A stretch of 64,000 nt of DNA, taken from NCBI GenBank assembly GCA_028279825.1, contig JANQNA010000007.1, forward strand, positions 89,409 to 153,408, in the 5' to 3' direction. How positions within the stretch are numbered: position 1 is the first letter of the stretch; each line of letters opens with the position of its first letter. The translations under genes and the position numbers were made by a program. The notes beneath the pieces are model-generated. The model did not search any database. It saw only the letters and a program-made list of their open reading frames with translations, and was not told the DNA's origin. Below are positions 4,948 through 62,066 of the stretch, in pieces. The stretch is from an archaeon. GTDB lineage: Archaea > Aenigmatarchaeota > Aenigmatarchaeia > GW2011-AR5.

Positions 4948-4978
4948 TTATTAATCCTTTTCTGTAAATCAACTTAAA

Positions 4979-5932
4979 ATGGCGAATGTACTGATAACCG
5001 GATGCGGTGGATTCATTGGTTCCCACCTTGCTGATTATCTGGTTAAGAGGGGAGACACTGTATACGGAACTACATTCAGTTTTGACGGGTCAAAGAATAT
5101 AGATCATCTTAAAGACAGGATAAATATAATCAAGTGCGATATGAAGAACAGGGAGGATGTGGAAAGGGCTGTCAAGGAGTCAAAACCTGATTTTGTTTTT
5201 CATATGGCTGCACAGAGCTTTGTTGTCCCTTCCTGGGAGGATCCTGAGAAGACTTTCCAGACGAACATATTTGGTACTCTTTATCTTTTTGAGGCGCTGG
5301 AAAAATACTCACCGGAAGCTGTTATAGGTGTTGCATGCAGTTCTGCTGAGTATGGTCATATAAAAGAAGATGAGGTTCCTGTTGGCGAGGACGGCAAGTT
5401 CAGACCGTCAAGTCCTTATGCCGTTAGCAAGATAGGGCAGGATATGCTTTCTTACCTTTACTGGAGAGCCCAGAACATGAAGATAATACGGATCAGGTTC
5501 TTTAACATAACCGGTCCAAGAAAGATTCTTGACATGTGTTCTGATTTTTCCAAAGGTATAGCTGAGGTTGAAGCCGGCAAAAAGGATAAACTGACGGTGG
5601 GTAATCTTGAAGGACTGAGAGATATAACTGATGTTCGCGACGCTGTAAAGGGGATTGTGCTTCTTTCACAGAAAGGAACACACGGAGATGTTTATAACGT
5701 ATGTTCCGGGAAAGCGATAAAGGTCGGCGATGTACTTGAAAAGCTTCTTTCTATGGCAAAAAAAGAGATAAAAGTGGAAAGTTCACCTGATCTGAGAAGA
5801 AAGATAGATGATCCGCTGTTTTTAGGGGACAATTCAAAACTGTTTAATCTGGGCTGGAAACTCGAAATTCCAATAGAAGATACACTTTCTGATATGCTCG
5901 AATACTGGCGTGACAGGGTGAACAATAGTTAG
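4979..5932 (+). CDS. NAD(P)-dependent NDP-sugar dehydratase/epimerase/reductase (extended SDR)
   Basis: 317 aa. GCGGFIGSHL glycine motif and catalytic YAVSK (YxxxK). Substrate not assignable by eye. Confidence 0.8.
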   Translation: MANVLITGCGGFIGSHLADYLVKRGDTVYGTTFSFDGSKNIDHLKDRINIIKCDMKNREDVERAVKESKPDFVFHMAAQSFVVPSWEDPEKTFQTNIFGTLYLFEALEKYSPEAVIGVACSSAEYGHIKEDEVPVGEDGKFRPSSPYAVSKIGQDMLSYLYWRAQNMKIIRIRFFNITGPRKILDMCSDFSKGIAEVEAGKKDKLTVGNLEGLRDITDVRDAVKGIVLLSQKGTHGDVYNVCSGKAIKVGDVLEKLLSMAKKEIKVESSPDLRRKIDDPLFLGDNSKLFNLGWKLEIPIEDTLSDMLEYWRDRVNNS

Positions 5933-5987
5933 ATAAGTGTACCAATACCAATTAAAAAGTTCTTAATATCTGAATGATAGTGATCTG

Positions 5988-6689
5988 ATGAAAGTCGTTA
6001 TTTTATGCGGTGGAAAGGGTGAACGAATGGGTCCTATAAGCTCTACTACCCCGAAACCGCTAATACAGATAGGCGAAAAACCTGTTTTGTGGCATATAAT
6101 GAAGACATTCGAATCTCACGGGTTCAAGGACTTTATTTTGTGTCTTGGTTACAAAGGTGACAAGATAAGAGAGCACTTTTCAAAGAATTATGACCACTGG
6201 AACATTGAATTCGTTGATACAGGACTGGAGTCCAAAAAATCAGAACGTCTGGCCATGGTGAAGGATTTAATAAAGGATGATAATTTCATGCTTTCTTACG
6301 GTGATGATCTTTCAGATGTGGACATAGAGAAGGTTGTGGAGACCCATAAGAAAATGGGCAGGATGGTGACATTAACTGCAGTGAAACTCACATCACCATT
6401 TGGCCTGGTTGATATACAGGAAGATTCAAGTGTCACGGGATTCAAAGAAAAACCTGTCATAGACAAATGGATTAACGGCGGCTATATGGTTCTCAACAGG
6501 AAAATCTTTGACCACCTTCATGAGGGTGAGCTTGAAGACGATGTATTTAAGAAACTTGTTGAGATGGGAGAGATATGTGCACACAAACATCCCGGCAGAT
6601 GGAAGAGTATGAGCACATTAAAGGATAATACTGAACTAAATAACATGTGGAATAACCAACAGGCTTATTGGAAAAAGTGGGATGATTGA
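5988..6689 (+). CDS. rfbF: glucose-1-phosphate cytidylyltransferase
   Basis: 233 aa. The N-terminus MKVVILCGGKGERMG…TPKPLIQIGEKPVLWHIMK matches the RfbF/DdhA signature. The CDP-glucose dehydratase-like gene follows directly. Confidence 0.8.
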   Translation: MKVVILCGGKGERMGPISSTTPKPLIQIGEKPVLWHIMKTFESHGFKDFILCLGYKGDKIREHFSKNYDHWNIEFVDTGLESKKSERLAMVKDLIKDDNFMLSYGDDLSDVDIEKVVETHKKMGRMVTLTAVKLTSPFGLVDIQEDSSVTGFKEKPVIDKWINGGYMVLNRKIFDHLHEGELEDDVFKKLVEMGEICAHKHPGRWKSMSTLKDNTELNNMWNNQQAYWKKWDD

Positions 6690-7674
6690 AATGTATTGGC
6701 AAGGCAAGCGCGTTTTTGTAACAGGGGCAACAGGATTTCTCGGATCCTGGATAGCCAAACAGCTCACGGAATCCGGTGCACATGTAACAGTTCTTATAAG
6801 GGATGTACCTGCTAATTCAAACTTCTTTCTTTCAGGACTGGACAAAAAAACAAACATGGTTAATGGTGATGTAAAGGATTTAGAGACCGTGTCGCGTACG
6901 CTGAATGAGTACGAGATTGATACTGTTATACATCTTGCAGCCCAGGCACTGGTAAAACCGGCTGTGAACAATCCTGTAGAGACGTTTGAGGTTAACGTAA
7001 GAGGTACATGGAATGTTCTGGAGGCTGCCAGAAGAAACAACGTGGAAAGACTTGTGATGGCTTCAAGCGACAAGGCATACGGTTCGCATGAAATTCTGCC
7101 TTATGATGAAGATGCTATGCTTAAGGGAAGGTTCCCTTATGACGTTTCAAAGTCCTGTGCAGACATGCTAGGCCAGGCGTACTTTGCAACATATGGGTTA
7201 CCTGTTGGTATCACACGTTGCGGCAATCTTTACGGTCCAGGTGATATGAATTTCAGCCGTATCGTTCCGGGTACGATGAGGTCCATTATAAAGAATGAAA
7301 ACCCTGTTATCAGGAGTGACGGGACTTTCAAGAGAGACTACTTTTTTATCAGGGACGCAGTTGACGGATACCTGACACTGGCAAAGGCACTTGACCAGCA
7401 GAACATACGTGGCCAGGCGTTTAACCTTGCACCACAAAGACCTCTGACAGTACTGGAGCTGTTCAAGAAAATGATAGAAGTTTCGGGAAAAACACACCTC
7501 GAGCCTGTAATTAAGAATGAAGCAAAGCAGGAAATAAAAGACCAATATTTGTCCAACAAGAAAGCAAAAACAGTGCTTAACTGGTCTCCAAAATTTGCTG
7601 TTGAGGAAGGATTGAAAGAAACTTTTGACTGGTATGTTAAATTCTTTGGCAGCGAATCTATAGATAGATACTAG
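6682..7674 (+). CDS. rfbG: CDP-glucose 4,6-dehydratase
   Basis: 330-aa extended SDR. N-terminus YWQGKRVFVTGATGFLGSW is typical of RfbG/DdhB. Catalytic YDVSK. 8-nt overlap with rfbF. Confidence 0.8.
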   Translation: MIEMYWQGKRVFVTGATGFLGSWIAKQLTESGAHVTVLIRDVPANSNFFLSGLDKKTNMVNGDVKDLETVSRTLNEYEIDTVIHLAAQALVKPAVNNPVETFEVNVRGTWNVLEAARRNNVERLVMASSDKAYGSHEILPYDEDAMLKGRFPYDVSKSCADMLGQAYFATYGLPVGITRCGNLYGPGDMNFSRIVPGTMRSIIKNENPVIRSDGTFKRDYFFIRDAVDGYLTLAKALDQQNIRGQAFNLAPQRPLTVLELFKKMIEVSGKTHLEPVIKNEAKQEIKDQYLSNKKAKTVLNWSPKFAVEEGLKETFDWYVKFFGSESIDRY

Positions 7675-8111
7675 TGATTCTTATGATAAGTGGAGTTGTT
7701 GTAAAACCTCTGAAGCAGTTTCCTGATGAAAGAGGAAAAGTAATGCACATGGTTAGGTCTACAGATGAGGTTTTTGAAAAATTCGGAGAGATTTATTTTT
7801 CTACATGCAATCCCAATGCTGTCAAGGCGTGGAAACTTCACAAGAAAAAAACTTCCATATACTGTGTTGTTGCCGGTGATGCAAAGATAGTTTTACATGA
7901 CATGAGAGAAGAATCCGAAAGCAGGGGTAAAACAACAGAAATCAAGGCAGGCGAGAGTAATTATATACTGGTGAAAATACCACCGGGCGTTGCTCATGGT
8001 TTTAAGTGTATAAGTAATAAAAGTGCTATGATAGCAAATTTGGCTTCTGAACCGTATGATTCAGCAGACAACTTTGATATAGAAGCGGAGAAAATAAATT
8101 ATACGTGGTAA
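7674..8111 (+). CDS. small cupin NDP-sugar epimerase / 3,4-ketoisomerase-like protein
   Basis: 145 aa. FPDERGK near the N-terminus and …GVAHGF… near the C-terminus, as in RmlC-type epimerases and FdtA/QdtA ketoisomerases. Shorter than classical RmlC. GTG start overlaps the upstream stop by 1 nt; an ATG alternative is at 7683. Confidence 0.6.
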   Translation: MILMISGVVVKPLKQFPDERGKVMHMVRSTDEVFEKFGEIYFSTCNPNAVKAWKLHKKKTSIYCVVAGDAKIVLHDMREESESRGKTTEIKAGESNYILVKIPPGVAHGFKCISNKSAMIANLASEPYDSADNFDIEAEKINYTW

Positions 8112-8112
8112 A

Positions 8113-9015
8113 ATGCACGTAACTATAACCGGCGGTTTTGGTTTTGTCGGCAGCCATTGCGCCGAATATTTCAAGGAAAAGGGACATGATGTTACTATTT
8201 TTGCTAGACATATCCCTCCTTTTATGGAGTCATGGGCCAAAAATTATGACGTTGTCATAGGAGATATCAAACAAGAAGAGCCTGACCTGAAAGGCGACAT
8301 GGTTATACACTGCGCTTCTGTTAATGAGACAAAAGGCAAGACACTTGCAGACTTTATAGAAACCAACTGTACCGGGACACGCAACGTTATACAATCCTGT
8401 ATTGCAAACAATGTTAAAAAATTCCTCAAGGTGTCAACTATTCATGCCTATGGCATAAGACCTGGCATAATAACTGAAGAGAGTTCCCATCATCCGGAAA
8501 CGCCATACGGTATAAGTCACATGCTATCTGATCAGATCTGCATGAGTTATGCAAACAAAATAGACACCACTGTTGTCAGAATGTCAAATACTTTCGGCCC
8601 GCCGGTTAATCCTCACATAGACCGATGGACTCTTGTTGTGAATAATTTCTGCCTGCAGGCAGTAAAGACAGCCAAAATCGTTCTGAACACCAAAGGACAC
8701 CAGAGAAGAGATTTTGTGGACATAAGGGAAGCTGTGAGAGCCTTTGACTTCATCCTGAAACATAACAAATATTCAGGCAGTATTTTTAACGTGGGAGGAG
8801 AGTGTATACTTCCTATACAGGAAGTGGCTTTGAGGGTTGCGGCCCAGCATAAAAAAAGATACGACAAGGATGTAAGCATCATACTTGGTGACAAAGAAGA
8901 GACTGTTACAGGTTTTATGTTTTCTATAGAAAAACTAAAGAAACTTGGATTCATTCCTAAAGAAAACATGAACGCTGTTATAAACAGTTTATTTGACGTG
9001 TGTGAGAAGATATGA
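8113..9015 (+). CDS. extended SDR NDP-sugar epimerase/reductase with atypical YxxxH active-site motif
   Basis: 300 aa. TGGFGFVGSH glycine motif. The catalytic region reads PYGISH rather than YxxxK. Confidence 0.7.
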   Translation: MHVTITGGFGFVGSHCAEYFKEKGHDVTIFARHIPPFMESWAKNYDVVIGDIKQEEPDLKGDMVIHCASVNETKGKTLADFIETNCTGTRNVIQSCIANNVKKFLKVSTIHAYGIRPGIITEESSHHPETPYGISHMLSDQICMSYANKIDTTVVRMSNTFGPPVNPHIDRWTLVVNNFCLQAVKTAKIVLNTKGHQRRDFVDIREAVRAFDFILKHNKYSGSIFNVGGECILPIQEVALRVAAQHKKRYDKDVSIILGDKEETVTGFMFSIEKLKKLGFIPKENMNAVINSLFDVCEKI

Positions 9016-9953
9016 AAGTTTCTGTAGTAATACCGTCTCATAATAGAAGAGAGAAAGTTAAACAGGCTGTAAAATCCCTCGTCAACCAGGATTTTCCCAA
9101 GAAAGACTACGAGATAATTGTTGTTTCTGACTCCTGGGACGGTACGGAACAAGCCATAGCAAAAATAAAAAAGAATTCTAAAGTCAGAATAAGCTTTTTC
9201 CGAAAAGAAAGTGACGGTCCATCACAAAAGAGGAATGTCGGCTGGAAAAACGCCAAGGGAAATATAGTTGCGTTTATAGATGATGACTGTGTAGCGGGCC
9301 GTGAGTGGCTGAAAAACATTCATGATGCTTTTCAAGGCAAAGTTGGTGCAGTTGAGGGAAAAACACTGACGGATGACGGCATAGGTCCTTTCACACATTA
9401 TATTCTTAATGAAAGAGGCGGCCAGTATATGACATGTAACATGGCCTATAAGAGAGAACTTCTCAAGAAAATGGGCGGATTTGACGAAAATTTCACAACT
9501 CCGGTTACGATAAACAGAGAAGATTCGGACCTTGCCTTTTCTATCATGGAAAAGGGGTACAGGATTGCGTTTGCAAGAAATGCTATTGTGAGGCATCCTG
9601 TTGTGAAGACAGGACTTGTTAACAGACTCAAGAAAAAGAAAGAGTTTTTTGTTGATCCACTGCTTTATAAGAAACACCCGGAGCTTTACAAGTCCAGAAT
9701 AAAGTTCCCTTTCGAAATGTTTACGCCATTTTACATACTTTTCACGGCTCTGTCTCTGTTATTTTGGCAGTCAATACTGTTGATATTTTTGATAGGACTT
9801 TATGAGTTAATGCACAGAAAATGGTCAGTTTCTTTCACAGAATTCTTCAAGTTTCTTGTGCTGCAGGTAGTAGGATCGTTCATAGTTGTTATTTTCTACC
9901 TTTACGGTTGTGTTCATTTCAGGGTTAACCCGCTCCGGCCATTGTTAATTTAG
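9012..9953 (+). CDS. family 2 glycosyltransferase with C-terminal membrane anchor
   Basis: 313 aa. VVIPSHNR and FIDDDC (DxD). The last ~90 aa form hydrophobic helices. ATGA overlap with the upstream gene. Confidence 0.75.
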   Translation: MKVSVVIPSHNRREKVKQAVKSLVNQDFPKKDYEIIVVSDSWDGTEQAIAKIKKNSKVRISFFRKESDGPSQKRNVGWKNAKGNIVAFIDDDCVAGREWLKNIHDAFQGKVGAVEGKTLTDDGIGPFTHYILNERGGQYMTCNMAYKRELLKKMGGFDENFTTPVTINREDSDLAFSIMEKGYRIAFARNAIVRHPVVKTGLVNRLKKKKEFFVDPLLYKKHPELYKSRIKFPFEMFTPFYILFTALSLLFWQSILLIFLIGLYELMHRKWSVSFTEFFKFLVLQVVGSFIVVIFYLYGCVHFRVNPLRPLLI

Positions 9954-10015
9954 TTTTGTACCAATACTAATAAAAACCCAAAATGGCTTAAAACGTTTCT
10001 CTTGAAAGTGATATA

Positions 10016-11077
10016 ATGATAAAAATTTCTGATCCTTACATTGGTGAAGAGGAGATAAATGCTGTAAGAAGGGTTCTAACCAGCGGTACGCTTGCCAGAG
10101 GCCAGGAAACAAAGAGTTTTGAGAAACACTTTGCTGCCTATGTAGGCACTAAAGACGCTGTTGCAACAAGCAGCGGTACGACTGCGCTGCACACGGCATT
10201 GATTGCGAACGGCATAGGCAAAGGCGACGAAGTCATTACGTCAGGATTTTCCTTTATCGCAAGTGCAAACACCATATTGCATACAGGTGCAAAGCCCGTA
10301 TTTGCCGATGTCAACTATGACGATTTTAACATCGATACAGAAGATGTAGAAAGGAAGATAACTGACAAGACGAAAGCTATTGTTGTCGTGCACCTATACG
10401 GACAGTCATGTGACATGAAGAGAATACGGGAAATTTGCGAAACACACAATTTGAAATTAATAGAAGATGCGTGCCAGGCTCATGGTGCCGAATATGAGGG
10501 GAAAAGGGTGGGGTCATTTGGCACGGGATGTTTTTCATTTTACGCGACAAAAAACATGGTAACAGGCGAAGGAGGGATAATAACTACTGATGATGATAAA
10601 GTTGCTGAATCTGCAAGGATGATAATCAGTCACGGTTCAAAAATTAATTATGAAAATGTTCAGATGGGTTACAATTTTAGAATGACTGAGATGCAGGCAG
10701 CAATAGGCAATGTGCAAATTAAGAGGGTAGATGAGTTGAATCAGAAGAGAATAGAAAACGCCGGATTGTTCAGCTCCCTGATAAAAAACCATGATATTTC
10801 TGTGCCAAAAGTAATGAACGGCAGGAAACATGTTTTTCATCTGTACACAATCAAAACACAAAACAGAGAAGAGATAATTGAGAAACTCCAGAAAAACAAC
10901 ATAGGGTATGGTATTTATTATCCAAAGCCGATACACAAACAGGAATTGTATCAGAAACTTGGCTATAAAGACTCTTTGCCCGTTTCAGAAAAACTTTCCG
11001 GAGAAGTTCTTAGCCTTCCGGTTCATCCAAAGGTTACAAAAGAAAATATAGAAAAAATAATTTCCTGTATAGAGTGA
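10016..11077 (+). CDS. DegT/DnrJ/EryC1/StrS-family PLP-dependent NDP-sugar aminotransferase
   Basis: 353 aa. GDEVITSGFSFIASAN, DACQAHGA, and the PLP-lysine context FSFYATKNM. Confidence 0.85.
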   Translation: MIKISDPYIGEEEINAVRRVLTSGTLARGQETKSFEKHFAAYVGTKDAVATSSGTTALHTALIANGIGKGDEVITSGFSFIASANTILHTGAKPVFADVNYDDFNIDTEDVERKITDKTKAIVVVHLYGQSCDMKRIREICETHNLKLIEDACQAHGAEYEGKRVGSFGTGCFSFYATKNMVTGEGGIITTDDDKVAESARMIISHGSKINYENVQMGYNFRMTEMQAAIGNVQIKRVDELNQKRIENAGLFSSLIKNHDISVPKVMNGRKHVFHLYTIKTQNREEIIEKLQKNNIGYGIYYPKPIHKQELYQKLGYKDSLPVSEKLSGEVLSLPVHPKVTKENIEKIISCIE

Positions 11078-11081
11078 TCAT

Positions 11082-11777
11082 ATGAGAATAGGCGTTTTTG
11101 CATACAACTTTGAGCATAAGAAAACACAGGAAGGTTTAATGTGGCTGTTCATGAACGGCTACAAAGTTGATTGTATCTTTGCTGCTGACCCTGTTGAACT
11201 AAAATTCTACCAGTCAAAGATAAGACTTTCACCAAAAAAACTTTCGTATATGCACCCAAAGGAAATAGCAAATACAATGGACGTGCCTTATCATGTTGTT
11301 GTTCACAACAGTAAAGATTGTGAAGAGCTGATAAGAAAGTACAATCTTGATGTTGGCATTGTTCTTGGCGCGAGAATATTGAAAGAAAATGTGATAAATG
11401 CTTTCAATGTTGGAGTGCTTAACATGCATCCAGGTCTACTACCGGAAAACCGCGGGCTTGATACAATAAAATGGGCAATTCTAAATGATCTGAAACAGGG
11501 TGTTTCGTGTCACCTTATCAGCAAGGAAATTGACAAAGGAAGTCTTATAATCAAGAAAGAGATAGAGGTTTTTGAGGATGATACCCTGCTGGATATTTTC
11601 CTCAGAATTCAGAACATGGAACAGGTTCTTATGATTGAATCTCTGAGGATACTGGAAAGTAAAAAGAATTTTGAAAAAGTTGAAGAAGGTACATACAACA
11701 AGTCCGTCCCTTCGGAACTGGAAGCAAAACTTTTTGAGAAGTTTGAAACCTACAAGAAGAATTATTCAAAATTGTGA
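11082..11777 (+). CDS. formyltransferase (sugar N-formyltransferase-like)
   Basis: 231 aa. Formyl_trans_N catalytic motif NMHPGLLPENRG (Asn/His) and a downstream Asp in IDKGSLI. Size and context (directly after the aminotransferase) fit the WbtJ/VioF/WlaRD-type enzymes. Confidence 0.75.
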   Translation: MRIGVFAYNFEHKKTQEGLMWLFMNGYKVDCIFAADPVELKFYQSKIRLSPKKLSYMHPKEIANTMDVPYHVVVHNSKDCEELIRKYNLDVGIVLGARILKENVINAFNVGVLNMHPGLLPENRGLDTIKWAILNDLKQGVSCHLISKEIDKGSLIIKKEIEVFEDDTLLDIFLRIQNMEQVLMIESLRILESKKNFEKVEEGTYNKSVPSELEAKLFEKFETYKKNYSKL

Positions 11778-12721
11778 TTGATATGAAGATATGCCACCTG
11801 CAAACACACAGTCCTGACGTAACAGGAGGAATAGAAACAGTCGTTACCCATCTTAGAAACGGTGATGACGTAAGGTATATTGGTACAGGAGGGTTTGGTT
11901 CTTTGATCAGAGGTTTCTTTTTGGCACTAAAACTCAGGTTTTCTGATTACGATGTTATTCACGCGCATGATAATGCAGGTTACTGGTGTACCTGGGTTGC
12001 AAAAAACAAAAACCTTGTTTTTACGGCGCAGGGACTGTGGGAAGACTACTTCAACATGAATCCTCCCAGAGGAATAAAGAAAAAACTTGAATCAAAAATT
12101 CTTTTGTCTATGCAGTCTCGGCTTATCAGAAAATCCAATGCTGTCGTTCCTATTACTTCGATAATTAAGACCAGGCTTCAAAAAAAGTATGGCATAACAC
12201 CTACTTCAGTTGTACACAACGGTGTCGACACGGGATTATTCAGACCCAGTAAGGGCAGAAAAGAGTTTGGTTACATATGGGTTGGTACCAATCCTGAAAG
12301 CAAAAGACTCAAGGAAACTATAGAACTTGCTGAGAAAAATTCCAAGAACCTTTTAGTTATCGGTACTTCCGGAAAAAACACGAAAGCCATAAGATACATG
12401 AGAAACGTTTCCAGAAAGAATATGCCTTCTGTTTACAACAGTGCAGGCACTTTTGTTTACTTTAATAAACAGAAGGATTATTCCCTTGCTCTTCTTGAAG
12501 CTATGGCCAGCGGGCTTGACATAATTACACTTGACTATATTCTTGAAGAATTAACAAAGGCCGGAAAAGCTTCCGGTACAATGGATCTTGACGGAAGGCG
12601 TGTGAAGAAGGTTACACTTACAGGTTCTATGGCCAGGAAAATTGCAGAAAGTGAACTTGACTGGAAAGTTACCAGATTGAAATATAAACGTATCTACAAT
12701 AATGTGATGTATAATGAATGA
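11774..12721 (+). CDS. GT-B fold glycosyltransferase (family 4-like)
   Basis: 315 aa. N-terminal GGIETVV and C-terminal LALLEAMASGLDII region. GTGA overlap with the upstream gene; alternative ATG at 11783. Confidence 0.65.
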   Translation: MIDMKICHLQTHSPDVTGGIETVVTHLRNGDDVRYIGTGGFGSLIRGFFLALKLRFSDYDVIHAHDNAGYWCTWVAKNKNLVFTAQGLWEDYFNMNPPRGIKKKLESKILLSMQSRLIRKSNAVVPITSIIKTRLQKKYGITPTSVVHNGVDTGLFRPSKGRKEFGYIWVGTNPESKRLKETIELAEKNSKNLLVIGTSGKNTKAIRYMRNVSRKNMPSVYNSAGTFVYFNKQKDYSLALLEAMASGLDIITLDYILEELTKAGKASGTMDLDGRRVKKVTLTGSMARKIAESELDWKVTRLKYKRIYNNVMYNE

Positions 12722-13679
12722 ACTGAAGAATAAGTCTTTGATGGTTGTTGGCGGTGCCGGTTTTATAGGGTCACATTTAGTAGAGGCTCTGATAGAAGAG
12801 AAACCAAAAAGTATTGTGGTTGTTGATAACTTTTTTCTGGGCGAGATGGGCAACCTTGAGACTGCAAAGACGAAGTTTGATGTTATAGTAGAAAATCAGG
12901 ACGCATGTGACTATGAAAAAATGAAGAAGATCGTTGAAACAAATAAAATTGATGTCGTTTTTAATTTGGCATGTGTTCCATTGCCAACTTCTTTGGTAAA
13001 ACCTATATGGACCTTTGATCAGAACATTGGTGTTGCCAAAACCTTATGCAGACTTATAAGAGAAGGTTCGTTCAAGACGCTGGTTCATTATTCGTCTTCA
13101 GAAGTTTACGGAACAGCCACAAAAGAAACCATGGATGAAGAACATTCTCTGTTTCCAAGGACACCTTATGCTGCGGCAAAAGCAGCCTGCGATCACCTTG
13201 TTAACGCCTATTATGAGACCTACGGAATAGACATGGTAATAATAAGACCGTTCAATAACTTTGGTCCAAGGCAGAATGACAAGTCATATGCAGGTGTAAT
13301 ACCGCTTACAGTCAAAAGAATACTTAACAATGAACAACCTGTTATTTTTGGCGACGGTACTCAAACAAGAGATTTTATTTTTGTGAAAGATACTGTAAAT
13401 GCTACTATAGATGCTTACAAATCTGATCAAACAAGAGGTAGGACGATTAACATTGCAAGCGGTAAGGAGACTTCTGTAAAAGATCTTATTGATTTGATAT
13501 CCCAGGAACTTTCTTATGATAAACCTGCAAGGCATGATGCACCCAGACCAGGTGATGTTATGAGACACATGGGTGACATAACTCTTGCAAAAAAACTTAT
13601 TGGTTTCCAGCCCACCACTGATCTAAGGAAAGGTATGAAAGAAACTATAGACTGGTATAAAAAAAGGCATGTGGTATAA
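12714..13679 (+). CDS. NAD-dependent NDP-sugar epimerase/dehydratase (UDP-glucuronate decarboxylase-like SDR)
   Basis: 321 aa. GGAGFIGSHL and catalytic YAAAKAA. Confidence 0.8.
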   Translation: MNELKNKSLMVVGGAGFIGSHLVEALIEEKPKSIVVVDNFFLGEMGNLETAKTKFDVIVENQDACDYEKMKKIVETNKIDVVFNLACVPLPTSLVKPIWTFDQNIGVAKTLCRLIREGSFKTLVHYSSSEVYGTATKETMDEEHSLFPRTPYAAAKAACDHLVNAYYETYGIDMVIIRPFNNFGPRQNDKSYAGVIPLTVKRILNNEQPVIFGDGTQTRDFIFVKDTVNATIDAYKSDQTRGRTINIASGKETSVKDLIDLISQELSYDKPARHDAPRPGDVMRHMGDITLAKKLIGFQPTTDLRKGMKETIDWYKKRHVV

Positions 13680-14509: not shown

Positions 14510-16027
14510 CCATATTTTTACTGTAGAGAAGAATGATCTTGGGTTTCTTCTTGCGAATCTGAACAATCTTGATGCTTTTTCTTTATCTTCTTTGAACTGT
14601 GATCGTATACCATCCCGTCTTATTCTTTTTACTATTTCTATCGGAGTGAGACCGATTATTAACGAAAGAAGATTTCCGTAATCACAGTAATCTTTGATCT
14701 CTTTTGGGGTAAGTTTGCACCATTTCGAAGTTAACTCTATTGATTCTCTATCATAATTTCCGTCATGATCGATCCCGTAAAACTTGTCCCAGTTCAATGT
14801 TTTCGGATCTATTATACCCATTTCTATTAGCTGGTTATACAGTTCTGTACCCGGTAAAGGTACGACGGGACAGAATGTTCCGTAATCGGGTTTAATTCTT
14901 TTTATCAAACGGAACGTGTTCCAGACGTTTTCTTTTGTTTCACCAATGTTACCGATTAAGAAGAATGCTCTTGCCCTGATGACTTTCTTTACAGGCGGGA
15001 AAGTCTGCTCAAAGGATGCCACGGTTGCATCTTTTTTCATGACCTTTAGTATGTCATTATCTCCTGACTCTATCCCAATGCTCATTCCGGTACAGCCAGC
15101 CTTTCTCATTAGCTTTAACAGTTTATTTGGAATGGTTGTTGCTCTTGTTACGACACTCCATTTTATGTTGTAGTTTTTCTCAATTAGTGCGGTACATAAT
15201 TCCTCTACGAACGCATGATTCTGCCCGAAAAGATCGTCAGAGAACCAGAAAGTTTTCTTTCCGAAGTTTTCTATCAGGTAGTCGATCTCTTTCAGTATGC
15301 TTTTTGCAGATCTAGACCTGTATTTTCTTTTGTATATGACACCCGATGCACAGTAGGTACATCTGTAAATACAACCTCTGGACGAATTTATGTTGTAAAG
15401 AGGATACTTACTCATGTCGAACAAACTGTAGTCCGGCAGAGGAAGCTCATCCAGATTTTTCACAAAATCAGACGGCAATGTTCTGAACGGACTATCATCC
15501 TTTATACACAACCCGTTTACCTGTGACAGATCTCCGTTATCTTTTATTGTGCTTAACAAGTGCGGCATTACAATCTCTGCTTCGCCAATAACAACAAAAT
15601 CTATTGCCGAGTCTTTCAGAATTGCTTCCGGAACCGCGGTCGCATGATTTCCACCTATCAATATCGGGACATTTTTGTAATTGTTTTTTATCATTTCAGC
15701 GATTTTTATTGAAGGGTTATGTAAAGTAGAAAAATTGCACGCAAGTCCTATTGCATCAGGCTTATAGTCCTTTACTATCTCCAGTATTTTTTCAAATCCT
15801 GTTTTGTGCACGCCTGCGTCTATTACCCTGACTTCGTAACCAAGATTTTTCAGATGTGCACCAATTGTTGCCACGTTTGTAGGTGATGATGCCACATAAT
15901 CAGCAAAATCCATCGTTGGAGGTATTATGAAAAGAACTTTCTTGACGTCTGTTATGTCAAAGTTTTTCCTGACTACACCTATCGAGTCTACCGTCCTAGT
16001 GGTTTCCAACATTCTGAGCTCTGACAT
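14498..16027 (-). CDS. B12-binding (class B) radical SAM enzyme
   Basis: 509 aa. N-terminal B12-binding-like domain (VLFIIPP…AIGLACN). Cluster motif SSRGCIYRCTYC. Confidence 0.85.
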   Translation of the reverse strand: MSELRMLETTRTVDSIGVVRKNFDITDVKKVLFIIPPTMDFADYVASSPTNVATIGAHLKNLGYEVRVIDAGVHKTGFEKILEIVKDYKPDAIGLACNFSTLHNPSIKIAEMIKNNYKNVPILIGGNHATAVPEAILKDSAIDFVVIGEAEIVMPHLLSTIKDNGDLSQVNGLCIKDDSPFRTLPSDFVKNLDELPLPDYSLFDMSKYPLYNINSSRGCIYRCTYCASGVIYKRKYRSRSAKSILKEIDYLIENFGKKTFWFSDDLFGQNHAFVEELCTALIEKNYNIKWSVVTRATTIPNKLLKLMRKAGCTGMSIGIESGDNDILKVMKKDATVASFEQTFPPVKKVIRARAFFLIGNIGETKENVWNTFRLIKRIKPDYGTFCPVVPLPGTELYNQLIEMGIIDPKTLNWDKFYGIDHDGNYDRESIELTSKWCKLTPKEIKDYCDYGNLLSLIIGLTPIEIVKRIRRDGIRSQFKEDKEKASRLFRFARRNPRSFFSTVKIWLTA

Positions 16028-27162: not shown

Positions 27163-28842
27163 ATGAGGAATCGCGAGGTAGCTAATGTTCTGACGGAAAT
27201 TGCAGATCTGATGGAGATAAAGGGTGAGCTTGTTTTCAAGGTGGTTGCCATGCGCAGGGCTGCGCAGACCATAGAGTTCATGGCCAAGGATATTGATGAA
27301 GTTTACAAAAGGGGCGAACTTGACGACATTCCGGGTGTTGGCGAGGCTATTTCAAAGAAGATCGCAGATTATCTGGAACACGGAGAGTCAAAGTACCTGA
27401 AAAAGCTGAAGAAGGGTTTGCCGCCGGGATTTGATAAATTGCTTGAACTTGAAGGTGTTGGACCCAAGAAAGTTAAATTGTTCTACGAGAAGCTTAAGGT
27501 TAAGAATGTGAAAGATCTGGAGAAAGCTGTCAAAACGGGAAAGTTGAGGAAACTTCCGGGGATGAGGGAGAAAACTGAAGATAACATTCTGAGAAGCATA
27601 GAGTCTGCCAAAAGAAGAACGGGTAGAATGCTTCTTGCTGATGCGTTAGATACTGCTGACGACGTTATTAAAGAACTCAGGAATGCTTCCGTGGGGAAGA
27701 TAGACGTTGCCGGCTCTACAAGACGTGGAAAAGAGACGGTTGGTGATATAGATATACTGGTTACGTCTTCCAATCCAAAAAAGGTTATTGACAAGTTTGT
27801 CAGAATGAAGGATGTTTCCCATGTTATCGGTAAGGGTTCTACAAAGGCTTCTGTCAATCTCAAAAGCGGGCTGCAAGTGGACCTGAGAGTGCTAAAGGAC
27901 AGTGAATACGGATCGGCTCTTATGTACTTTACCGGGTCCAAGGATCATAACGTTGAGTTAAGACGAATTGCAATATCCAGGGGAATGAAACTGAGTGAAT
28001 ACGGTCTGTTTAAGGGTAAACGATTTGTGGCAGGTAAGACCGAGAAAGAGGTTTACAGGAAACTTGGCGTGAGTTATATCCCTCCGGAGTTGCGTGAGAA
28101 TCGTGGTGAGCTGGATGTGACAATACCAAAACTTGTAGAACAAAAGGATATTCGCGGTGATCTTCATATGCACACAAAATGGACTGACGGGAACAACACG
28201 ATAAAGGAAATGGCGCTGGCTGCGAAACATCTTGGGTATGATTATATTTGTATATCTGACCATTACGGTACAATGCTTATTGCTAATCCTTTGGACAGGA
28301 AAAAATTTGAAGCTCAACAGAAGGAAGTAGAAAAAGTAAGAAAGAAAGTTGATATAACAATACTCCACGGGGCTGAAGTAGATATAATGGCTAATGGTAA
28401 ACTAAATGCGCCTGATTCGCTACTTAAGAAAATGGATTTTGTTACTGCTTCACTGCATACTGCACTGAGGAAAGAAAACACGGGACGCGTTATTAGTGCA
28501 ATGCAAAATAAGTATGTTCATTCTATTGGTCATTTAACTGGCAGGCTGATAAATGTCCGCCAGGGATCAGATCTCAATTTTGGTAAAATATTTGACAAAG
28601 CCAGGGAAACAGAAACTCTCCTGGAAATAAACTGCCAGCCCGGTAGACTCGATTTAACCGACACTAGCTCAAAAGCGGCTTTGCAAGCCGGCTGCAAGCT
28701 TGTTGTCAACACTGATGCACACAGCGTTGAACAACTTTCTAATATGAAACTTGGAATTTCCGTAGCACGTAGGGCCTGGGCCAGAAAGAAAGATATTGTG
28801 AATACCTACAATCTTGACAGGCTTAGGAAACTCTTGAAATGA
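27163..28842 (+). CDS. polX: family X DNA polymerase with C-terminal PHP domain
   Basis: 559 aa. HhH motifs (IPGVGEAISKKI, LEGVGPKK), catalytic GDIDILV, and PHP motif DLHMHTKWTDG…SDH. Confidence 0.9.
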   Translation: MRNREVANVLTEIADLMEIKGELVFKVVAMRRAAQTIEFMAKDIDEVYKRGELDDIPGVGEAISKKIADYLEHGESKYLKKLKKGLPPGFDKLLELEGVGPKKVKLFYEKLKVKNVKDLEKAVKTGKLRKLPGMREKTEDNILRSIESAKRRTGRMLLADALDTADDVIKELRNASVGKIDVAGSTRRGKETVGDIDILVTSSNPKKVIDKFVRMKDVSHVIGKGSTKASVNLKSGLQVDLRVLKDSEYGSALMYFTGSKDHNVELRRIAISRGMKLSEYGLFKGKRFVAGKTEKEVYRKLGVSYIPPELRENRGELDVTIPKLVEQKDIRGDLHMHTKWTDGNNTIKEMALAAKHLGYDYICISDHYGTMLIANPLDRKKFEAQQKEVEKVRKKVDITILHGAEVDIMANGKLNAPDSLLKKMDFVTASLHTALRKENTGRVISAMQNKYVHSIGHLTGRLINVRQGSDLNFGKIFDKARETETLLEINCQPGRLDLTDTSSKAALQAGCKLVVNTDAHSVEQLSNMKLGISVARRAWARKKDIVNTYNLDRLRKLLK

Positions 28843-29809
28843 TATTATCTTCTATTTTGAATTTAACAGGCAGGAACTGCTCTATTACCCATATGTTTGT
28901 CCGTACATGATTAGTTACTTCAGCTACTTTTACTATTCCGTCGGTAAATGCGAGATATGGCAGGATTTGGTCGGCCATGTGTTCGTCAAGACATGCTCCG
29001 GTTTCACATACTTTCTTCAGGTGCTCAGCGGATTCTTTTCCTACAGTTTCAGCCGGTTTACCTTTTTCACCAAGCGATGAAGCACCTAAACGACAATTCT
29101 CATAAGTTGCATAACAAGTTAAGCAAGAGCCTGGTGAACTACTTTCGGTTTGTGCGACTTCTTTTATTCCGAAATCCGTTATTTTTGAAGCAGCTTCAGC
29201 TTGTCGCTGTGCGACACCTTCAAGGTTCTTTGAGGATACGCTGATTAATCCGTGGTTGAGAAGTTTGTCCCTATGTTTCAGGTTTATTGGCTTCAACTCT
29301 GAAGGATTTATCTTAACTTCAACTACTCCCCCACCTTTTGGATAGAAGCCGTATCGCTTTGTTTCAATTTCTATGTCTACACCTAACTTTTCTAGAAAGT
29401 AGGTGAAGACGTGACGCATGTAGTCAATACTTGGACTCCAATTCACGTGTGTACCGCCGGTTATTTTGAGAGTTGTTGGATGCTTTGCGTGTATTGACGG
29501 TAGTGCAACTGCCTGGATAACAAGAGCAATGGAACCGGCTGTTCCTATGTCAATATCATAGTGACCCCCGCCCAAGCTTCCCGGATTGAAAACAAGTTTT
29601 GTGTCACCTACTTTTGCTTCTACATCTGTATTGCAAATCTGGGCAACGGCCTTGATTGCTGCCAGATGTTGGGCCTGAATACCCGGGTTTTTCCGGTTAG
29701 CTCTAATATTTTCTATTTTACATGCCTTGCCTGTAATAGCAGAAAGAGCCACGCTTGTGCGTATTATCTGTCCCCCACCTTCACCGTGGGAACCATCTAT
29801 ACTTATCAT
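28823..29809 (-). CDS. rtcA: RNA 3'-terminal phosphate cyclase
   Basis: 328 aa. N-terminus IDGSHGEGGGQIIRTSVALSAITGK is the RtcA signature. Converges on and overlaps polX by 20 nt. Confidence 0.9.
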   Translation of the reverse strand: MISIDGSHGEGGGQIIRTSVALSAITGKACKIENIRANRKNPGIQAQHLAAIKAVAQICNTDVEAKVGDTKLVFNPGSLGGGHYDIDIGTAGSIALVIQAVALPSIHAKHPTTLKITGGTHVNWSPSIDYMRHVFTYFLEKLGVDIEIETKRYGFYPKGGGVVEVKINPSELKPINLKHRDKLLNHGLISVSSKNLEGVAQRQAEAASKITDFGIKEVAQTESSSPGSCLTCYATYENCRLGASSLGEKGKPAETVGKESAEHLKKVCETGACLDEHMADQILPYLAFTDGIVKVAEVTNHVRTNIWVIEQFLPVKFKIEDNIISRVS

Positions 29810-31041
29810 ACCCTGATCACTTCATTGTTCTTGGGTACAAACGCCTGTATTTTGAACTCATCTTCTATTGATTTGGCGAAGTCTTTGCACTCTTCACCAT
29901 GTACACAGATAACCTGTTCAGGCTTTGTTCTTCTTATTATATCGAAAAGACCGCTCTTGTCCGCATGCGCACTTAACTCCAGGTGATGTATGCTTGACTT
30001 GACTTTGTATCGTTCTTCTTCATTGTCAAATATTTTTGTTTCTGTTAACATTTTCCCGGGGCTGTCCTCGGCCAGATAGCTCGTGAATATGACACTGCAA
30101 TGCTCACAGCTCTTTATCTCGCCGAGATACCTGACGGCCGGACCGCCACCAAGCATTCCGGCAGATGAAAGAATTATAGGGTATTTCTTGACAGCTTCTT
30201 TCCTGTCACGTTCACTATGCAGGAATTTTACTTTTTGCAGGAGTTCCCGGAACTCTTTTGGGCTCCTCAAGTAACTTCCATAATCAGCTATTATTTCTGA
30301 TGCCAGTTTTGACATCCCGTCCAAAGCTATCTTGTCTGCATACTCTTTCAGAATTAATAAAACTTCCTGGGAGCGTCCAACTGCCAGGACAGGTACAAGT
30401 GCAACACCGTTGTTTGATATCGTTTCTTCAACAATATCAACCAGTTTCTTTTCTTCCAACCTTCTGTTCTCCTGTGTTCTTGTGCCGTAAGTACTTTCAA
30501 TTATTAACGTGTCAACTTTCTCAGGCAACTTGCAGCCGTTTAACAGCTTGCTCTGGCGGGTTTGTATGTCTCCTGTGTACAAAACTTTTTTCCCATTATC
30601 TAGAAGTATAGAAGAACTTCCTGGTATGTGACCTGCGTCCCATAAGCTGCAGGAAAACTCGCCTATCTTAAACTGTTCCTTATATCTGACTATTTTTGTG
30701 TTTTTGACCAGTCTCTTTACGTCTTTTTCAGAGAAAGGTACGCCAAAGCCTTCTTTCCTGGCAACCTTCATGGAATCCTTTAACAACATTGTGCCTAATT
30801 CTAGGGTTACATCGTTCATGAAAACCGGTATCTTTTCCCGCTGGGCCAAAAGAGGGGTTGCTCCTATGTGATCTAAATGTGCGTGAGAGACAATTCCCGC
30901 ATCGAATTTTTCCCGAATTGGATAAGTTGGAGGTTCGGGCTGGATCCTAACACCATAGTCCATCACAATTCTTTTCTTGTCTTCAACAAGAATTGCACTT
31001 TTTCCTATTTCGTTCCCACTGCCCAGAATTTTTATTTTCAT
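29806..31041 (-). CDS. beta-CASP / MBL-fold ribonuclease (aCPSF2-like)
   Basis: 411 aa. HAHLDHIG and beta-CASP-type downstream motifs (…ESTYG…, …HGE…). 4-nt overlaps with both neighbours. Confidence 0.85.
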   Translation of the reverse strand: MKIKILGSGNEIGKSAILVEDKKRIVMDYGVRIQPEPPTYPIREKFDAGIVSHAHLDHIGATPLLAQREKIPVFMNDVTLELGTMLLKDSMKVARKEGFGVPFSEKDVKRLVKNTKIVRYKEQFKIGEFSCSLWDAGHIPGSSSILLDNGKKVLYTGDIQTRQSKLLNGCKLPEKVDTLIIESTYGTRTQENRRLEEKKLVDIVEETISNNGVALVPVLAVGRSQEVLLILKEYADKIALDGMSKLASEIIADYGSYLRSPKEFRELLQKVKFLHSERDRKEAVKKYPIILSSAGMLGGGPAVRYLGEIKSCEHCSVIFTSYLAEDSPGKMLTETKIFDNEEERYKVKSSIHHLELSAHADKSGLFDIIRRTKPEQVICVHGEECKDFAKSIEDEFKIQAFVPKNNEVIRV

Positions 31042-54536: not shown

Positions 54537-54588
54537 AATAATTACATTTAATGTTAACTTTAAATAGACTTTGTATAAGTTACACGCC

Positions 54589-55554
54589 ATGTTAACACAG
54601 ACTGTAACAAGAAACTGGAAGATGTACAATCACGCCCAAACGGAAGAAAAACTCCTTGCTATGAGACTAATCAGCCACGCTATAGATTACATGGAATTCC
54701 CTTACGAGTACAAGGGAACAGGCAGGCCTTCAATCTACGTGACAGACATGATAAAATGCTGTATATTCAAGGTGTTTAATAACTTCTCATCGAGGAGAAC
54801 AATTTGTGATATCAAGTTGGCTCACGCTTTAGGGTATATAGATCATGTTCCTCACTTCAACACGGTAAACAACTACATGTCAAAAGAGGTTATAACTCCC
54901 CTCCTCCACAGGGTTTACAAAATTCTAGCTCTCCCTTTTGGTGATGTAGAGACCACGTTTGCTATCGATGCTTCGGGATTTTCTAACCTGCGCAAAAACA
55001 ACTGGATAGATTACAGAACCCAGAAAAAACGTATAGCTGGTTGGAAGAAACTCCACATCGTAACTGGGGTTAACACTACCATCATAGCCTCAGCAACTGT
55101 TAGTGAAGGAAAAAGAAACGACACTCTGTACTTTGATTCTCTAATCAGACAAACTGCAAAAGAATTCAGAGTGTTGGAAGTGTTAGCTGACCCTGCCTAT
55201 CTATCCCGTAACAACTGCAACACAGTTGAGGATGTAGGAGGGCGGCCTTTTATTCTTCCAAAATCCAATATCAGGTTAAGGTCTCTTCAAGCTTACAGTA
55301 GAGCACGGGCATGGAAAAAGATGATAAAAGTCTGGCGTGATAACCAACAGTTCTTCCTGGAAAAATACCACAAAAGAAGCAATGTAGAGTCCGCTTTCAG
55401 TTCCATGAAAAGGAAATTTTTACCTTACACTCGCAGCAAAAACGACACAGCCCAAACAAACGAGATCCTCATGAAGGTCATCTGTCATAACGCATCCATT
55501 CTTTGTAACGCTTTTTTCGAGCTCGGGATTAAATTCGAGCTAAAAAAGGTCTAG
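54589..55554 (+). CDS. DDE transposase, IS4 family signature
   Basis: D (FAIDASGFS), D (VLADPAYLS), and an exact Y-x2-R-x3-E-x6-K in KYHKRSNVESAFSSMK. The track start is TTG 54571, with ATG options at 54589 and 54622. The stop codon lies within the right terminal repeat. Confidence 0.85.
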   Translation: MLTQTVTRNWKMYNHAQTEEKLLAMRLISHAIDYMEFPYEYKGTGRPSIYVTDMIKCCIFKVFNNFSSRRTICDIKLAHALGYIDHVPHFNTVNNYMSKEVITPLLHRVYKILALPFGDVETTFAIDASGFSNLRKNNWIDYRTQKKRIAGWKKLHIVTGVNTTIIASATVSEGKRNDTLYFDSLIRQTAKEFRVLEVLADPAYLSRNNCNTVEDVGGRPFILPKSNIRLRSLQAYSRARAWKKMIKVWRDNQQFFLEKYHKRSNVESAFSSMKRKFLPYTRSKNDTAQTNEILMKVICHNASILCNAFFELGIKFELKKV

Positions 55555-61362: not shown

Positions 61363-61494
61363 CGCTGGGAGAGGGAAATTCCCAGACGACGAATATCGTC
61401 AATCTGTTTTGAACCCACGCTTCCCCGGAGGGAAACAGGTTTAGCAAACCTGCGCCTTTAGCCATTTCCGCTATTCCGTCTCGGCCATCCCAGC
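61363..61494 (-). tRNA. tRNA-Ser (GCU) with insertions in the D loop (~15 nt) and T loop (~31 nt)
   Basis: Acceptor GCTGGGA/TCCCAGC plus G. D arm GCCGAGACGG[AATAGCGGAAATGGC]TAAAGGC. Anticodon arm CAGGT-TTGCTAA-ACCTG. Long variable arm TTTCCCTCCGGGGAAGC. T arm GTGGG-TTCAAA[…31 nt hairpin…]T-CCCTC, with one U-U mismatch. Confidence 0.7.
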
Positions 61495-61587
61495 TTGTGG
61501 TTTGATTGATTTTAGATTTGGATTACATGCTTAAAAACACAACGAAAAACTTATTTTAAAAGGTATACTATGTATTCTTAGCTGAAT

Positions 61588-61678
61588 GCTCCGTTCGTCT
61601 AGCCCGGTCAACTAATACAGACCGTAAGGATCTCGGCCTTTCAAGCCGGTGGCGCGGGTTCAAATCCCGCACGGAGCA
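61588..61678 (+). tRNA. tRNA-Glu (UUC) with a ~16-nt insertion in the D loop
   Basis: Acceptor GCTCCGT/ACGGAGC plus A. D region GTCTAGCCCGGTCAA[CTAATACAGACCGTAA]GGAT. Anticodon arm TCGGC-CTTTCAA-GCCGG. T arm GCGGG-TTCAAAT-CCCGC. Confidence 0.75.
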
Positions 61679-61775
61679 CTTTCGGATTTGAACCTTCGGG
61701 TTCACGTTCGATTGAGCGAAGCTCATCGACGGCTCGAAGAACACAGTTCTTCGCAGCAATCCCGCACGGAGCACT
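61663..61775 (+). repeat. 18-nt direct repeat of the tRNA-Glu 3' end flanking a 77-nt three-hairpin insert
   Basis: AATCCCGCACGGAGCACT occurs at 61663-61680 and 61758-61775. Hairpins between them: TGAACC-TTCG-GGTTCA (61689-61704), TCGATTGAGC-GAA-GCTCATCGA (61708-61729) and CGAAGAAC-ACA-GTTCTTCG (61735-61753). Confidence 0.85.
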
Positions 61776-61808
61776 CATAATTAAAAATAGATGGGAAAGA
61801 AAAAATTA

Positions 61809-62066
61809 CTAAATTAGTTTTTGCCCGTCTTTCAGGATGTGTATAACGTTTACAGGGCAGCTTTCTGCGGCTGTCTTGTTCTTTTCATAATCTTCGTCTT
61901 TGATGTCCAGCTCTTCTTTTATGATTTCACCGCCTTCTTCTGTACGTTTTCCACCCTTTATGTCGGATTTTCCGTCAGGGTCCATTTCCCAGAATTCCGG
62001 TGCTACTGCGGCACATGCTCCACATCCTATACAATTAGGTCTGTCGTGTTCTATCTTGTATGCCAT
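61809..62066 (-). CDS. single-cluster [4Fe-4S] ferredoxin
   Basis: 85 aa. CIGCGAC…CP gives four Cys ligands. Confidence 0.85.
   Translation of the reverse strand: MAYKIEHDRPNCIGCGACAAVAPEFWEMDPDGKSDIKGGKRTEEGGEIIKEELDIKDEDYEKNKTAAESCPVNVIHILKDGQKLI

Follow-up and report, generated by a model that had tools for sequence, protein, structure and literature searches.

The 64,000-nucleotide stretch of archaeal DNA analysed here (the window) carries a tRNA-Glu(UUC) gene whose T arm and 3′ end are duplicated around a small conserved hairpin element, apparently from a mobile repeat family. The locus is real, conserved and unusual, and its best-supported reading, to which we give about an even chance, is an insertion resembling a miniature inverted-repeat transposable element (MITE) or a repetitive extragenic palindromic (REP) sequence in a duplicated tRNA end. 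More specifically, the insert would be a MITE/REP-like hairpin element lying where T arm and 3′ end are duplicated in direct-inverted-direct order, and the proximal, contiguous copy would be the gene; roughly half of our confidence goes to this assignment.

A tRNA-Glu gene with a second 3′ end

The 18-mer AATCCCGCACGGAGCACT is present exactly twice, at an offset of 95 nt (Table 1), as an earlier note on this DNA had reported; no third copy occurs in the window even at three mismatches (none expected, from 100 shuffles). Other parts of that description also hold. The segment GGATTTGAACC of the insert (anti-T) is the perfect reverse complement of the T-arm segment GGTTCAAATCC (61657-61667), the sequence CGGGTTCA stands at 61655-61662 and again at 61697-61704, and three abutting hairpins (hp1, hp2 and hp3), the first with a UUCG loop, lie within the 77 nt between the 18-mers. 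These 77 nt are without coding capacity, and no terminal inverted repeats were seen by eye at their ends. The fold of the 79-nt insert has an energy of −31.5 kcal/mol (z = −4.2 relative to shuffled sequence), and 61684-61762 fits a four-way junction in which a closing helix, GGAUU (61684-61688) with AAUCC (61758-61762), bears hp1, hp2 and hp3 as its arms. Hairpins of this quality number 32 in the window against about 21 in shuffles, so they are not generally enriched.

The gene itself was hidden from standard tools. ARAGORN called no tRNA in the raw window, and Rfam gave only a partial tRNA match (61613-61670). Once a 16-nt mini-intron in the D loop is removed, ARAGORN calls a canonical 75-nt tRNA-Glu(ttc) from the proximal copy alone. 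The mini-intron has a minimal bulge-helix-bulge (BHB) motif, with the central helix CGGU (61605-61608)/ACCG (61621-61624), bulges CAA and UAA, outer pairs CC/GG and no inner helix. Without it the D loop equals that of the archaeon GW2011_AR5 (AR5), and a relative (L023; contigs are cited by such labels) has a 12-nt intron at the equivalent place. The first 24 nt of tRNA-Glu are the same in the window, AR5 and the Aenigmatarchaeota genome UBA10154. The contiguous gene 61588-61678 proposed by the earlier note is complete and colinear, although its 91 nt include the mini-intron; the working gene is most probably this segment minus those 16 nt.

Table 1. Features of the tRNA-Glu locus and its surroundings (window coordinates)
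Feature	Position	Strand	Remarks
DDE_Tnp_1 transposase	54571-55554	+	6 kb from the tRNA-Glu locus; sole transposase matched among the scanned open reading frames
tRNA-Ser(GCU)	61363-61494	-	Divergent neighbour; 31-nt T-loop intron and D-loop insert; missed by ARAGORN
Putative TATA/BRE-like (transcription factor B recognition element) promoter element CTTATTTTAAAAGG	61550-61563	+	24 nt 5′ of tRNA-Glu G1; read from the sequence
tRNA-Glu(UUC) exon 1, positions 1 to about 20b	61588-61610	+	ARAGORN, joined to 61627-61678
D-loop mini-intron ACTAATACAGACCGTA, 16 nt	61611-61626	+	Minimal BHB; worked out by hand
tRNA-Glu exon 2, to discriminator A73	61627-61678	+	CCA not encoded
Proximal 18-nt repeat	61663-61680	+	T-loop A58 to discriminator, plus CT
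Anti-T	61684-61694	+	5′ half (61684-61688) can pair with distal AAUCC (61758-61762); 3′ half in hp1
hp1, TGAACC-UUCG-GGUUCA	61689-61704	+	3′ arm and last two loop bases make the second CGGGTTCA
hp2, 11 bp	61705-61731	+	Two bulged U, GAA triloop, apex GCGAAGC; stem same in AR5
hp3, 3+8 bp	61732-61757	+	One bulged C, ACA triloop; 6 of 11 pairs changed on both sides in AR5
Distal 18-nt repeat	61758-61775	+	First 5 nt close the four-way junction

Conservation of the module and its probable mobile relatives

The earlier note had suggested looking for the repeat in related genomes, and it was found there. AR5 has the same repeat-insert architecture behind its tRNA-Glu, colinear with that of the window, and the AR5 module is identical in three more assemblies from other samples. 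When the two sequences are aligned to a model of the T arm and four-way junction, all 38 of 38 pairs form in both, and seven pairs (six in hp3, one in the T stem) are changed on both sides; with the partners slid by 1-3 columns only 30-47% are paired and none is compensatory. The hairpins are thus under selection, and because every pair is kept and compensatory changes have accumulated in AR5, a neutral decaying scar is excluded. The changes extend to the repeats. Anti-T differs in AR5 by one C-to-U change that retains its pairing, and the T-stem pair is G49-C65 in the window and A49-U65 in AR5, both 18-nt copies bearing the matching C or T. A third lineage, L062 (GCA_964432525.1), has a ferredoxin 82% identical to that of the window and the same cupredoxin-ferredoxin synteny. 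Its contig ends within the module (...TCGCAGC|AATCCCGCACGGAACACT); the junction of hp3 with the distal repeat is kept, and the distal repeat carries one G-to-A change (G71 to A).

The distribution is patchy: among the clade loci compared, only the window, L062 and AR5 have the module. Nothing like the insert accompanies tRNA-Glu in seven relatives (L016, L017, L018, L022, L023, L031 and L042), including L023, despite its sharing the window's T stem and D-loop intron. The module is also missing from contigs with a DUF5654 neighbour gene 93-94% identical to that of AR5, a comparison muddied by a recombination breakpoint just 5′ of tRNA-Glu. Searches of GTDB genomes for the insert returned AR5 only, and the JGI metagenomes, scanned by the repeat pattern rather than by insert sequence, gave only AR5-type loci. 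The recombination breakpoint named above is sharp: where L038 (AR5) and L027 are compared it lies at the tRNA-Glu promoter, with 95% identity upstream against 72% downstream and a different tRNA-Glu allele.

The link to mobile DNA comes from another Aenigmatarchaeota species. A covariance model built solely from the window and AR5 sequences matches intergenic double hairpins there, with 35-38 bits and E about 1e-5. One example reads ATGCTCAGAAAGC-GAA-GCTTTCTGGCAT and then directly GCCGAAGAAC-TTT-GTTCTTCGAGC. The dispersed copies (L052, L053) share with the window two abutting hairpins and the hp2 apex AGCGAAGCU, and the inner stem of hp3, CGAAGAAC/GUUCUUCG, is identical to that of the L052 copy. 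An nhmmer census of 484 kb found three to four double-hairpin loci in about 36 kb of that species, in addition to the tRNA-Glu copies of the window and AR5. Strain comparison demonstrates that these dispersed hairpins are mobile in that species, with strain-level presence or absence and sharp boundaries: L052 has a 52-nt double hairpin (1015-1066) that strain L056 lacks, and a 216-nt composite (14918-15133) that L053 lacks. This polymorphism was seen within the one relative species, not for the window's own copy. Neither insertion has a target duplication, or one of 1-2 nt at most, and none was found around the dispersed copies. The 52-nt unit of L052 is flanked by two longer hairpins with arms TGAACCAAGT/ACTTGGTTCAC. 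In the orientation of the model it stands directly after ...GGTTCACT, as hp2-hp3 of the window stands directly after CGGGTTCA; hp1 (TGAACC/GGTTCA) is similar to the flanking hairpins, which suggests that it too belongs to this repeat system.

In the reverse direction, a hidden Markov model built from the dispersed copies alone has its two best window hits in hp2-hp3, at 61732-61753 and 61715-61754, with E = 0.006 and 0.05. That hp2-hp3 and the dispersed double hairpins are homologous is therefore probable, not certain, and with moderate confidence we place this 53-nt core in a dispersed mobile double-hairpin repeat family of Aenigmatarchaeota of the MITE or REP kind, or like palindrome-associated transposable elements (PATE). 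Non-coding hairpin repeats that are mobilised in trans, for example by IS200/IS605-type Y1 transposases or by REP-associated tyrosine transposases (RAYTs), are familiar as REP sequences and bacterial interspersed mosaic elements (BIME), REP doublets forming hairpins (REPIN), MITE and PATE. The present element is like them in being a short non-coding unit of stable hairpins, with several intergenic copies in a relative, presence or absence among strains, insertion of the relative's copies at the base of another hairpin with no duplication of the target, and compensatory evolution of its stems. The lineage also has a Y1 transposase, in an IS200-type (Y1_Tnp only) 747-nt insertion at L055 2172-2918 that is polymorphic among strains of one species; the ends of that element are unlike hp2 and hp3. 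It differs in that the window copy is bracketed by direct 18-nt copies of a tRNA end, a kind of repeat that such elements do not make, and is a single copy in 64 kb, and in that its cognate transposase (the Y1 of L055 or the DDE of the window) is only a candidate. No DPANN hairpin-repeat family is described in the literature that we consulted on tRNA introns, casposons and integrases, a literature not aimed at hairpin repeats.

Another hairpin block was noticed in AR5. Between the conserved promoter and tRNA-Glu (L003 about 5087-5240, minus strand, equal to L038 1863-2013), some 150 nt hold four stable hairpins with GAA and UUCG loops. Contigs whose upstream DNA is 95% identical lack this block, which resembles further members of the hairpin repeats.

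The favoured reading can be put as a series of steps. The order along the locus, as we read it, is proximal copy, anti-T, second CGGGTTCA, hp2-hp3 immediately after GGTTCA, and distal 18-mer; hp2-hp3 would have arrived beside GGTTCA as a mobile hairpin unit, and, thanks to the duplicated tRNA end, one copy of the gene would remain intact. The 16-18-nt duplication itself may stem from a staggered-cut insertion, from template switching at the palindromic T arm, or from site-specific integration in the past. Because no oligo-T run occurs before about 61822, the whole block is expected to be transcribed as the 3′ trailer of the pre-tRNA, which RNase Z would remove after A73. The hairpins would be kept for the propagation or stability of the element itself and not for tRNA maturation.

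Several points weigh against this account. Conservation of anti-T and of the distal 18-mer equals that of tRNA-Glu, and the C/T change in the distal copy follows the proximal one. An inert trailer would not predict such conservation, which would call for gene conversion, independent recent insertions or a function; the pattern of conservation and co-variation points to gene conversion, repeated independent insertion or a role of the junction and its tail as RNA. The two demonstrable insertions occurred without target duplication, so that mechanism leaves the 18-nt repeat unexplained. The homology of hp2-hp3 to the dispersed family involves short sequences, and the reciprocal hidden Markov model reaches only E = 0.006-0.05. 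No further copy of the insert occurs elsewhere in the 64-kb window. Finally, transcription and processing of the trailer are predictions.

A tentative and less probable extension goes further. The double hairpin may be a DPANN mobile unit of about 52 nt that inserts without target duplication beside GGTTCA at the feet of DNA hairpins, the tRNA T arm being such a site. The locus of the window, L062 and AR5 would then be a rescued invasion of the T loop: the distal half, CGGGTTCA-[hp2-hp3]-AATCCCG..., would be the invaded copy and the proximal half its duplicated, intact replacement. In a more speculative variant, the hairpin scaffold with its 16-18-nt tail matching the tRNA would be a transposon-derived guide RNA directed against uninterrupted TTCA|AATCCC... 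sites.

A functional explanation can also be given, which we consider doubtful. A trailer RNA made of the 79-nt four-way junction (61684-61762) and a 13-nt tail identical to the tRNA 3′ end would be freed by RNase Z and act through its tail; possible roles are competition for the 5′ strand of the tRNA, a second processing site or a guide-like sequence. A junction without unpaired nucleotides, fully paired in both lineages and with seven compensatory pairs, would suit such an RNA, as would a tail and anti-T that are conserved like the tRNA and co-vary with it, and the lack of a terminator before the insert. In AR5, moreover, the distal copy ends 3 nt before the ATG ahead of a SET-domain gene, mirroring the tRNA-to-ORF (open reading frame) junction of relatives. 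However, an Rfam search of 61400-61900 found no ribozyme, C/D-box RNA, riboswitch or other family for the insert even at E = 10, most relatives lack the module, the distal copy of L062 carries the G71-to-A change, and the hairpin core resembles a dispersed repeat.

Downstream ORFs begin within 2-10 nt of the 3′ end of tRNA-Glu or of the distal copy, as seen for an aldehyde dehydrogenase gene in L027 (about 2528-2534) and for the SET-domain gene in AR5 (L038, about 2182-2195). Such near-abutting ORFs suggest tRNA-mRNA co-transcripts from which RNase Z would yield a near-leaderless mRNA.

Integration and splicing as alternatives

In relatives, the tRNA-Glu 3′ end is a proven integration site (attB). 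Strains of one species part exactly after ...ACGGAGCA at this end, and tyrosine integrase genes (Pfam Phage_integrase) begin about 110-130 nt 3′ of tRNA-Glu in L034, L023 and L047/L055. Contig L055 holds a complete 9.5-kb integrative element (3636-13150) between attL (...CCCGG ACGGAGCA|CTCATAG...) and attR (...CTCCGT ACGGAGCA|TTTTTATT...), for which L042 provides the empty site. Its cargo comprises the integrase, a P4 cII-like gene, a methyltransferase with a CfrBI-type endonuclease (restriction-modification) and two Holliday-junction-resolvase-like genes, and an element of this family occurs in a second species (L034). The repeat that it makes is only the 8 nt of ACGGAGCA, with flanks unrelated to the 77-nt insert.

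It is possible, although unlikely, that the window's locus is itself an integration scar, in which a class II tyrosine integrase crossing over in the T loop left the 18-mers as attL and attR and the 77 nt as a leftover or domesticated remnant of its element. A repeat that begins in the T loop and runs on to the tRNA end is the classic arrangement for integrases that target the T loop (PMC1762012, citing Williams 2002), and the present one extends from the T loop to 2 nt beyond that end. As in the class II case of mycobacteriophage Ms6 (PMC1762012), an intact gene lies on one side and the target is used in relatives, as the occupied and empty sites of L055 and L042, the nearby integrase genes of L034 and L023 and the divergence of strains exactly after ACGGAGCA attest. 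The difference is that the repeats here enclose 77 nt, conserved and structured, with no integrase or kilobase-scale DNA, whereas the integrase of the local relatives works on an 8-nt core right at the 3′ terminus and leaves an attL flank unlike the insert. Furthermore, 95 bp is far below the size of a recombining circle, and the 77 nt are colinear between the window and AR5 with compensatory changes rather than decay. Neither an integrase nor a Y1 transposase nor TnpB was matched among the window ORFs scanned, which were those of at least 280 aa together with those near tRNA-Glu. Collections of viral contigs, plasmids and phages contained neither the insert nor the tRNA end. The earlier note's proposal of att scars around a decayed element was thus right about a site that integrases use, and wrong about the decay.

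That note had also proposed a large T-loop intron. The neighbouring tRNA-Ser(GCU) allows this idea to be tested by comparison, because it has a T-loop intron with a BHB motif of its own, at 61377-61407 (position 59/60), where a clean hBHBh′ motif can be drawn; the sequence thereby indicates that the organism splices T-loop introns. The same gene has a D-loop insert of 11-15 nt and a U50-U64 mismatch in its T stem. Archaeal non-canonical BHB tRNA introns are known at positions 56/57, 59/60 and others (PMC4090602), and DPANN splicing endonucleases are reportedly associated with increased tRNA gene disruption (PMC5829648). An intron at tRNA-Glu would use the distal 3′ copy, with removal of 95 nt (or 42 + 53 nt) that might then become circular. 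The insert is like such introns in lying in or next to a T loop and in containing sequence complementary to an exon. The lineage's T-loop (tRNA-Ser) and D-loop (tRNA-Glu, 61611-61626) introns, the reported association for DPANN endonucleases, the co-variation of the distal copy with the T stem and a minimum-free-energy fold in which the distal copy is the partner of the 5′ acceptor strand would all be in keeping with it.

The geometry decides against this intron. Mature tRNA would be regenerated by 27 junctions: 17 at the 95-nt offset between the 18-mers, nine at the 42-nt offset between the CGGGTTCA copies and one 53-nt excision of hp2-hp3. Not one of the 27 has a 4-bp helix with two 3-nt bulges, and none of the usable junctions shows BHB, hBH or HBh′ geometry; the tRNA-Ser control and the D-loop mini-intron have the required form. 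The best junction reaches H = 3/4, with no inner helix and with helices out of register, and the tRNA-Ser control passes with H 3/4, h 3 and h′ 5. Because no BHB is present at the tRNA-regenerating junctions while two neighbouring introns have one, the intron reading is rejected, and we retain only a slight residual probability for a non-canonical form of it.

Further considerations lead in the same direction. Strict and relaxed BHB searches of the precursors of the window, AR5, L012, L013 and L001 (the last three are parallel loci described below) gave no correct tRNA-Glu through the distal copy. A weak BHB-like motif, AAYC/GAUU, is present in both the window and AR5; the product that it would yield is nonsense, and the motif is in competition with hp1 and hp2. 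The distal copy of L062 would mismatch C2, given the usual tRNA 5′ end. There is no need for splicing, because the proximal copy already gives the full 75-nt tRNA-Glu, the same product as distal splicing. The earlier note had stressed that two readings give one mature tRNA, and the products are indeed identical; use of the distal exon is unsupported, the BHB geometry being missing. The putative intron would, moreover, include a complete copy of the 3′ exon, and we know of no BHB intron of this kind. An antisense tRNA with anti-T as its T arm was also considered, and by hand no T stem forms.

In Nanoarchaeum equitans one tRNA-Glu 3′ half serves two 5′ halves. A split or permuted system, also raised in the earlier note, would by analogy have the distal piece and its structured leader act as a 3′ half that is joined in trans to the 5′ half from another gene. 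We hold this to be highly improbable. Beyond the N. equitans analogy there is only the structured RNA preceding the distal piece, whereas the piece is just 16 nt, no complementary 5′-half trailer exists in the window, and the proximal gene is complete and colinear with nothing permuted. A leader-trailer extension in the window is not kept in AR5.

Parallel loci, genomic setting and significance

Casposon- or Cas1-type integration at tRNA 3′ ends makes a 15-bp target duplication, with the T arm as a "leader", and the duplication of the A. boonei casposon overlaps the tRNA by 5 bp (PMC5137440). The present locus is similar in having a duplication of like length beside the T-arm palindrome, and a Woesearchaeota locus, L013, looks array-like. 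A casposon was nevertheless rejected: the insert has no terminal inverted repeats, and its duplication, of 16-18 nt, is almost wholly within the tRNA as opposed to 5 bp. Cas1 and PolB had no match among the window ORFs scanned, a search that was not lineage-wide. In the L013 locus (4548-4770, minus strand; a metagenome-assembled genome, MAG), tRNA-Glu(CUC) is followed by 2.5 tandem 99-nt units, each made of the tRNA's last 16 nt and an 83-nt three-hairpin spacer.

In Caldiarchaeum subterraneum a tRNA gene is disrupted by a 1.8-kb element bearing a recombinase, with a 5′ tRNA fragment (Sugahara et al. 2012, PMC3293823). Both cases have a duplicated tRNA fragment beside an insertion at a tRNA locus and heterogeneity among related genomes; they differ in that the window has a 77-nt hairpin module and a 3′ part of the tRNA.

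Two other loci have comparable layouts. Behind the tRNA-Glu of a MAG labelled Methanosarcinales (L012 5200-5372, plus strand) come a T-run and an anti-T, then a second CGGGTTCGA and a hairpin, and lastly 20 nt copied from the end of the tRNA. The anti-T matches that tRNA's own TTCGAAT loop; the layout is as in the window and the filler is unrelated. No integrase was evident by eye among the nearby ORFs of L012, which were not Pfam-scanned. In UBA10154 (L001 3604-3660, minus strand, equal to L018), a 12-nt duplication of the tRNA-Glu 5′ end, GCTCCGTTCGTC, accompanies a 45-nt insert with a TTTAAAAG motif. This duplication is missing in L016 and L022, and it is a mirror image of the window's 3′ case. 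That independent loci such as L012 have the same layout with unrelated filler suggests a recurrent mechanism at tRNA-Glu ends.

The TTTAAAAG-type TATA motif also lies 22-24 nt before position 1 of tRNA-Glu in L016, L022, L031, L036 and L042, and the corresponding element of the window is a putative promoter. Nanoarchaeum is free of RNase P and makes leaderless tRNA transcripts; the constant TATA-to-tRNA spacing suggests leaderless transcripts here as well.

The window is otherwise ordinary chromosomal DNA from an Aenigmatarchaeota-type DPANN archaeon. The alpha subunit of its pyruvate:ferredoxin oxidoreductase shares 64% identity with the UBA10154 protein and 58% with that of AR5. Among the products of its larger ORFs are glycosylation enzymes, aminoacyl-tRNA synthetases, topoisomerase, Cdc48, Lhr and RtcA, together with other housekeeping proteins of this sort. 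At 28823-31041 (minus strand) the gene for RtcA (RNA 3′-phosphate cyclase) adjoins a beta-CASP RNase gene.

Finally, both tRNAs of the locus, tRNA-Glu and tRNA-Ser, escape standard tRNA finders, and assemblies break within the repeat. Archaeal tRNA genes are fragmented in many ways, through non-canonical introns, split genes and permuted genes. How such disruption originates is an old question; the preferred answer, though a poorly documented one, is that mobile DNA inserts into the genes. If the insertion model is true, this locus would supply both an intermediate visible in the sequence and a candidate agent for the disruption of tRNA genes in DPANN archaea. If invasion of the T loop by the double-hairpin unit is true, it would be a living intermediate in the birth of non-canonical tRNA introns and fragmented tRNA genes.

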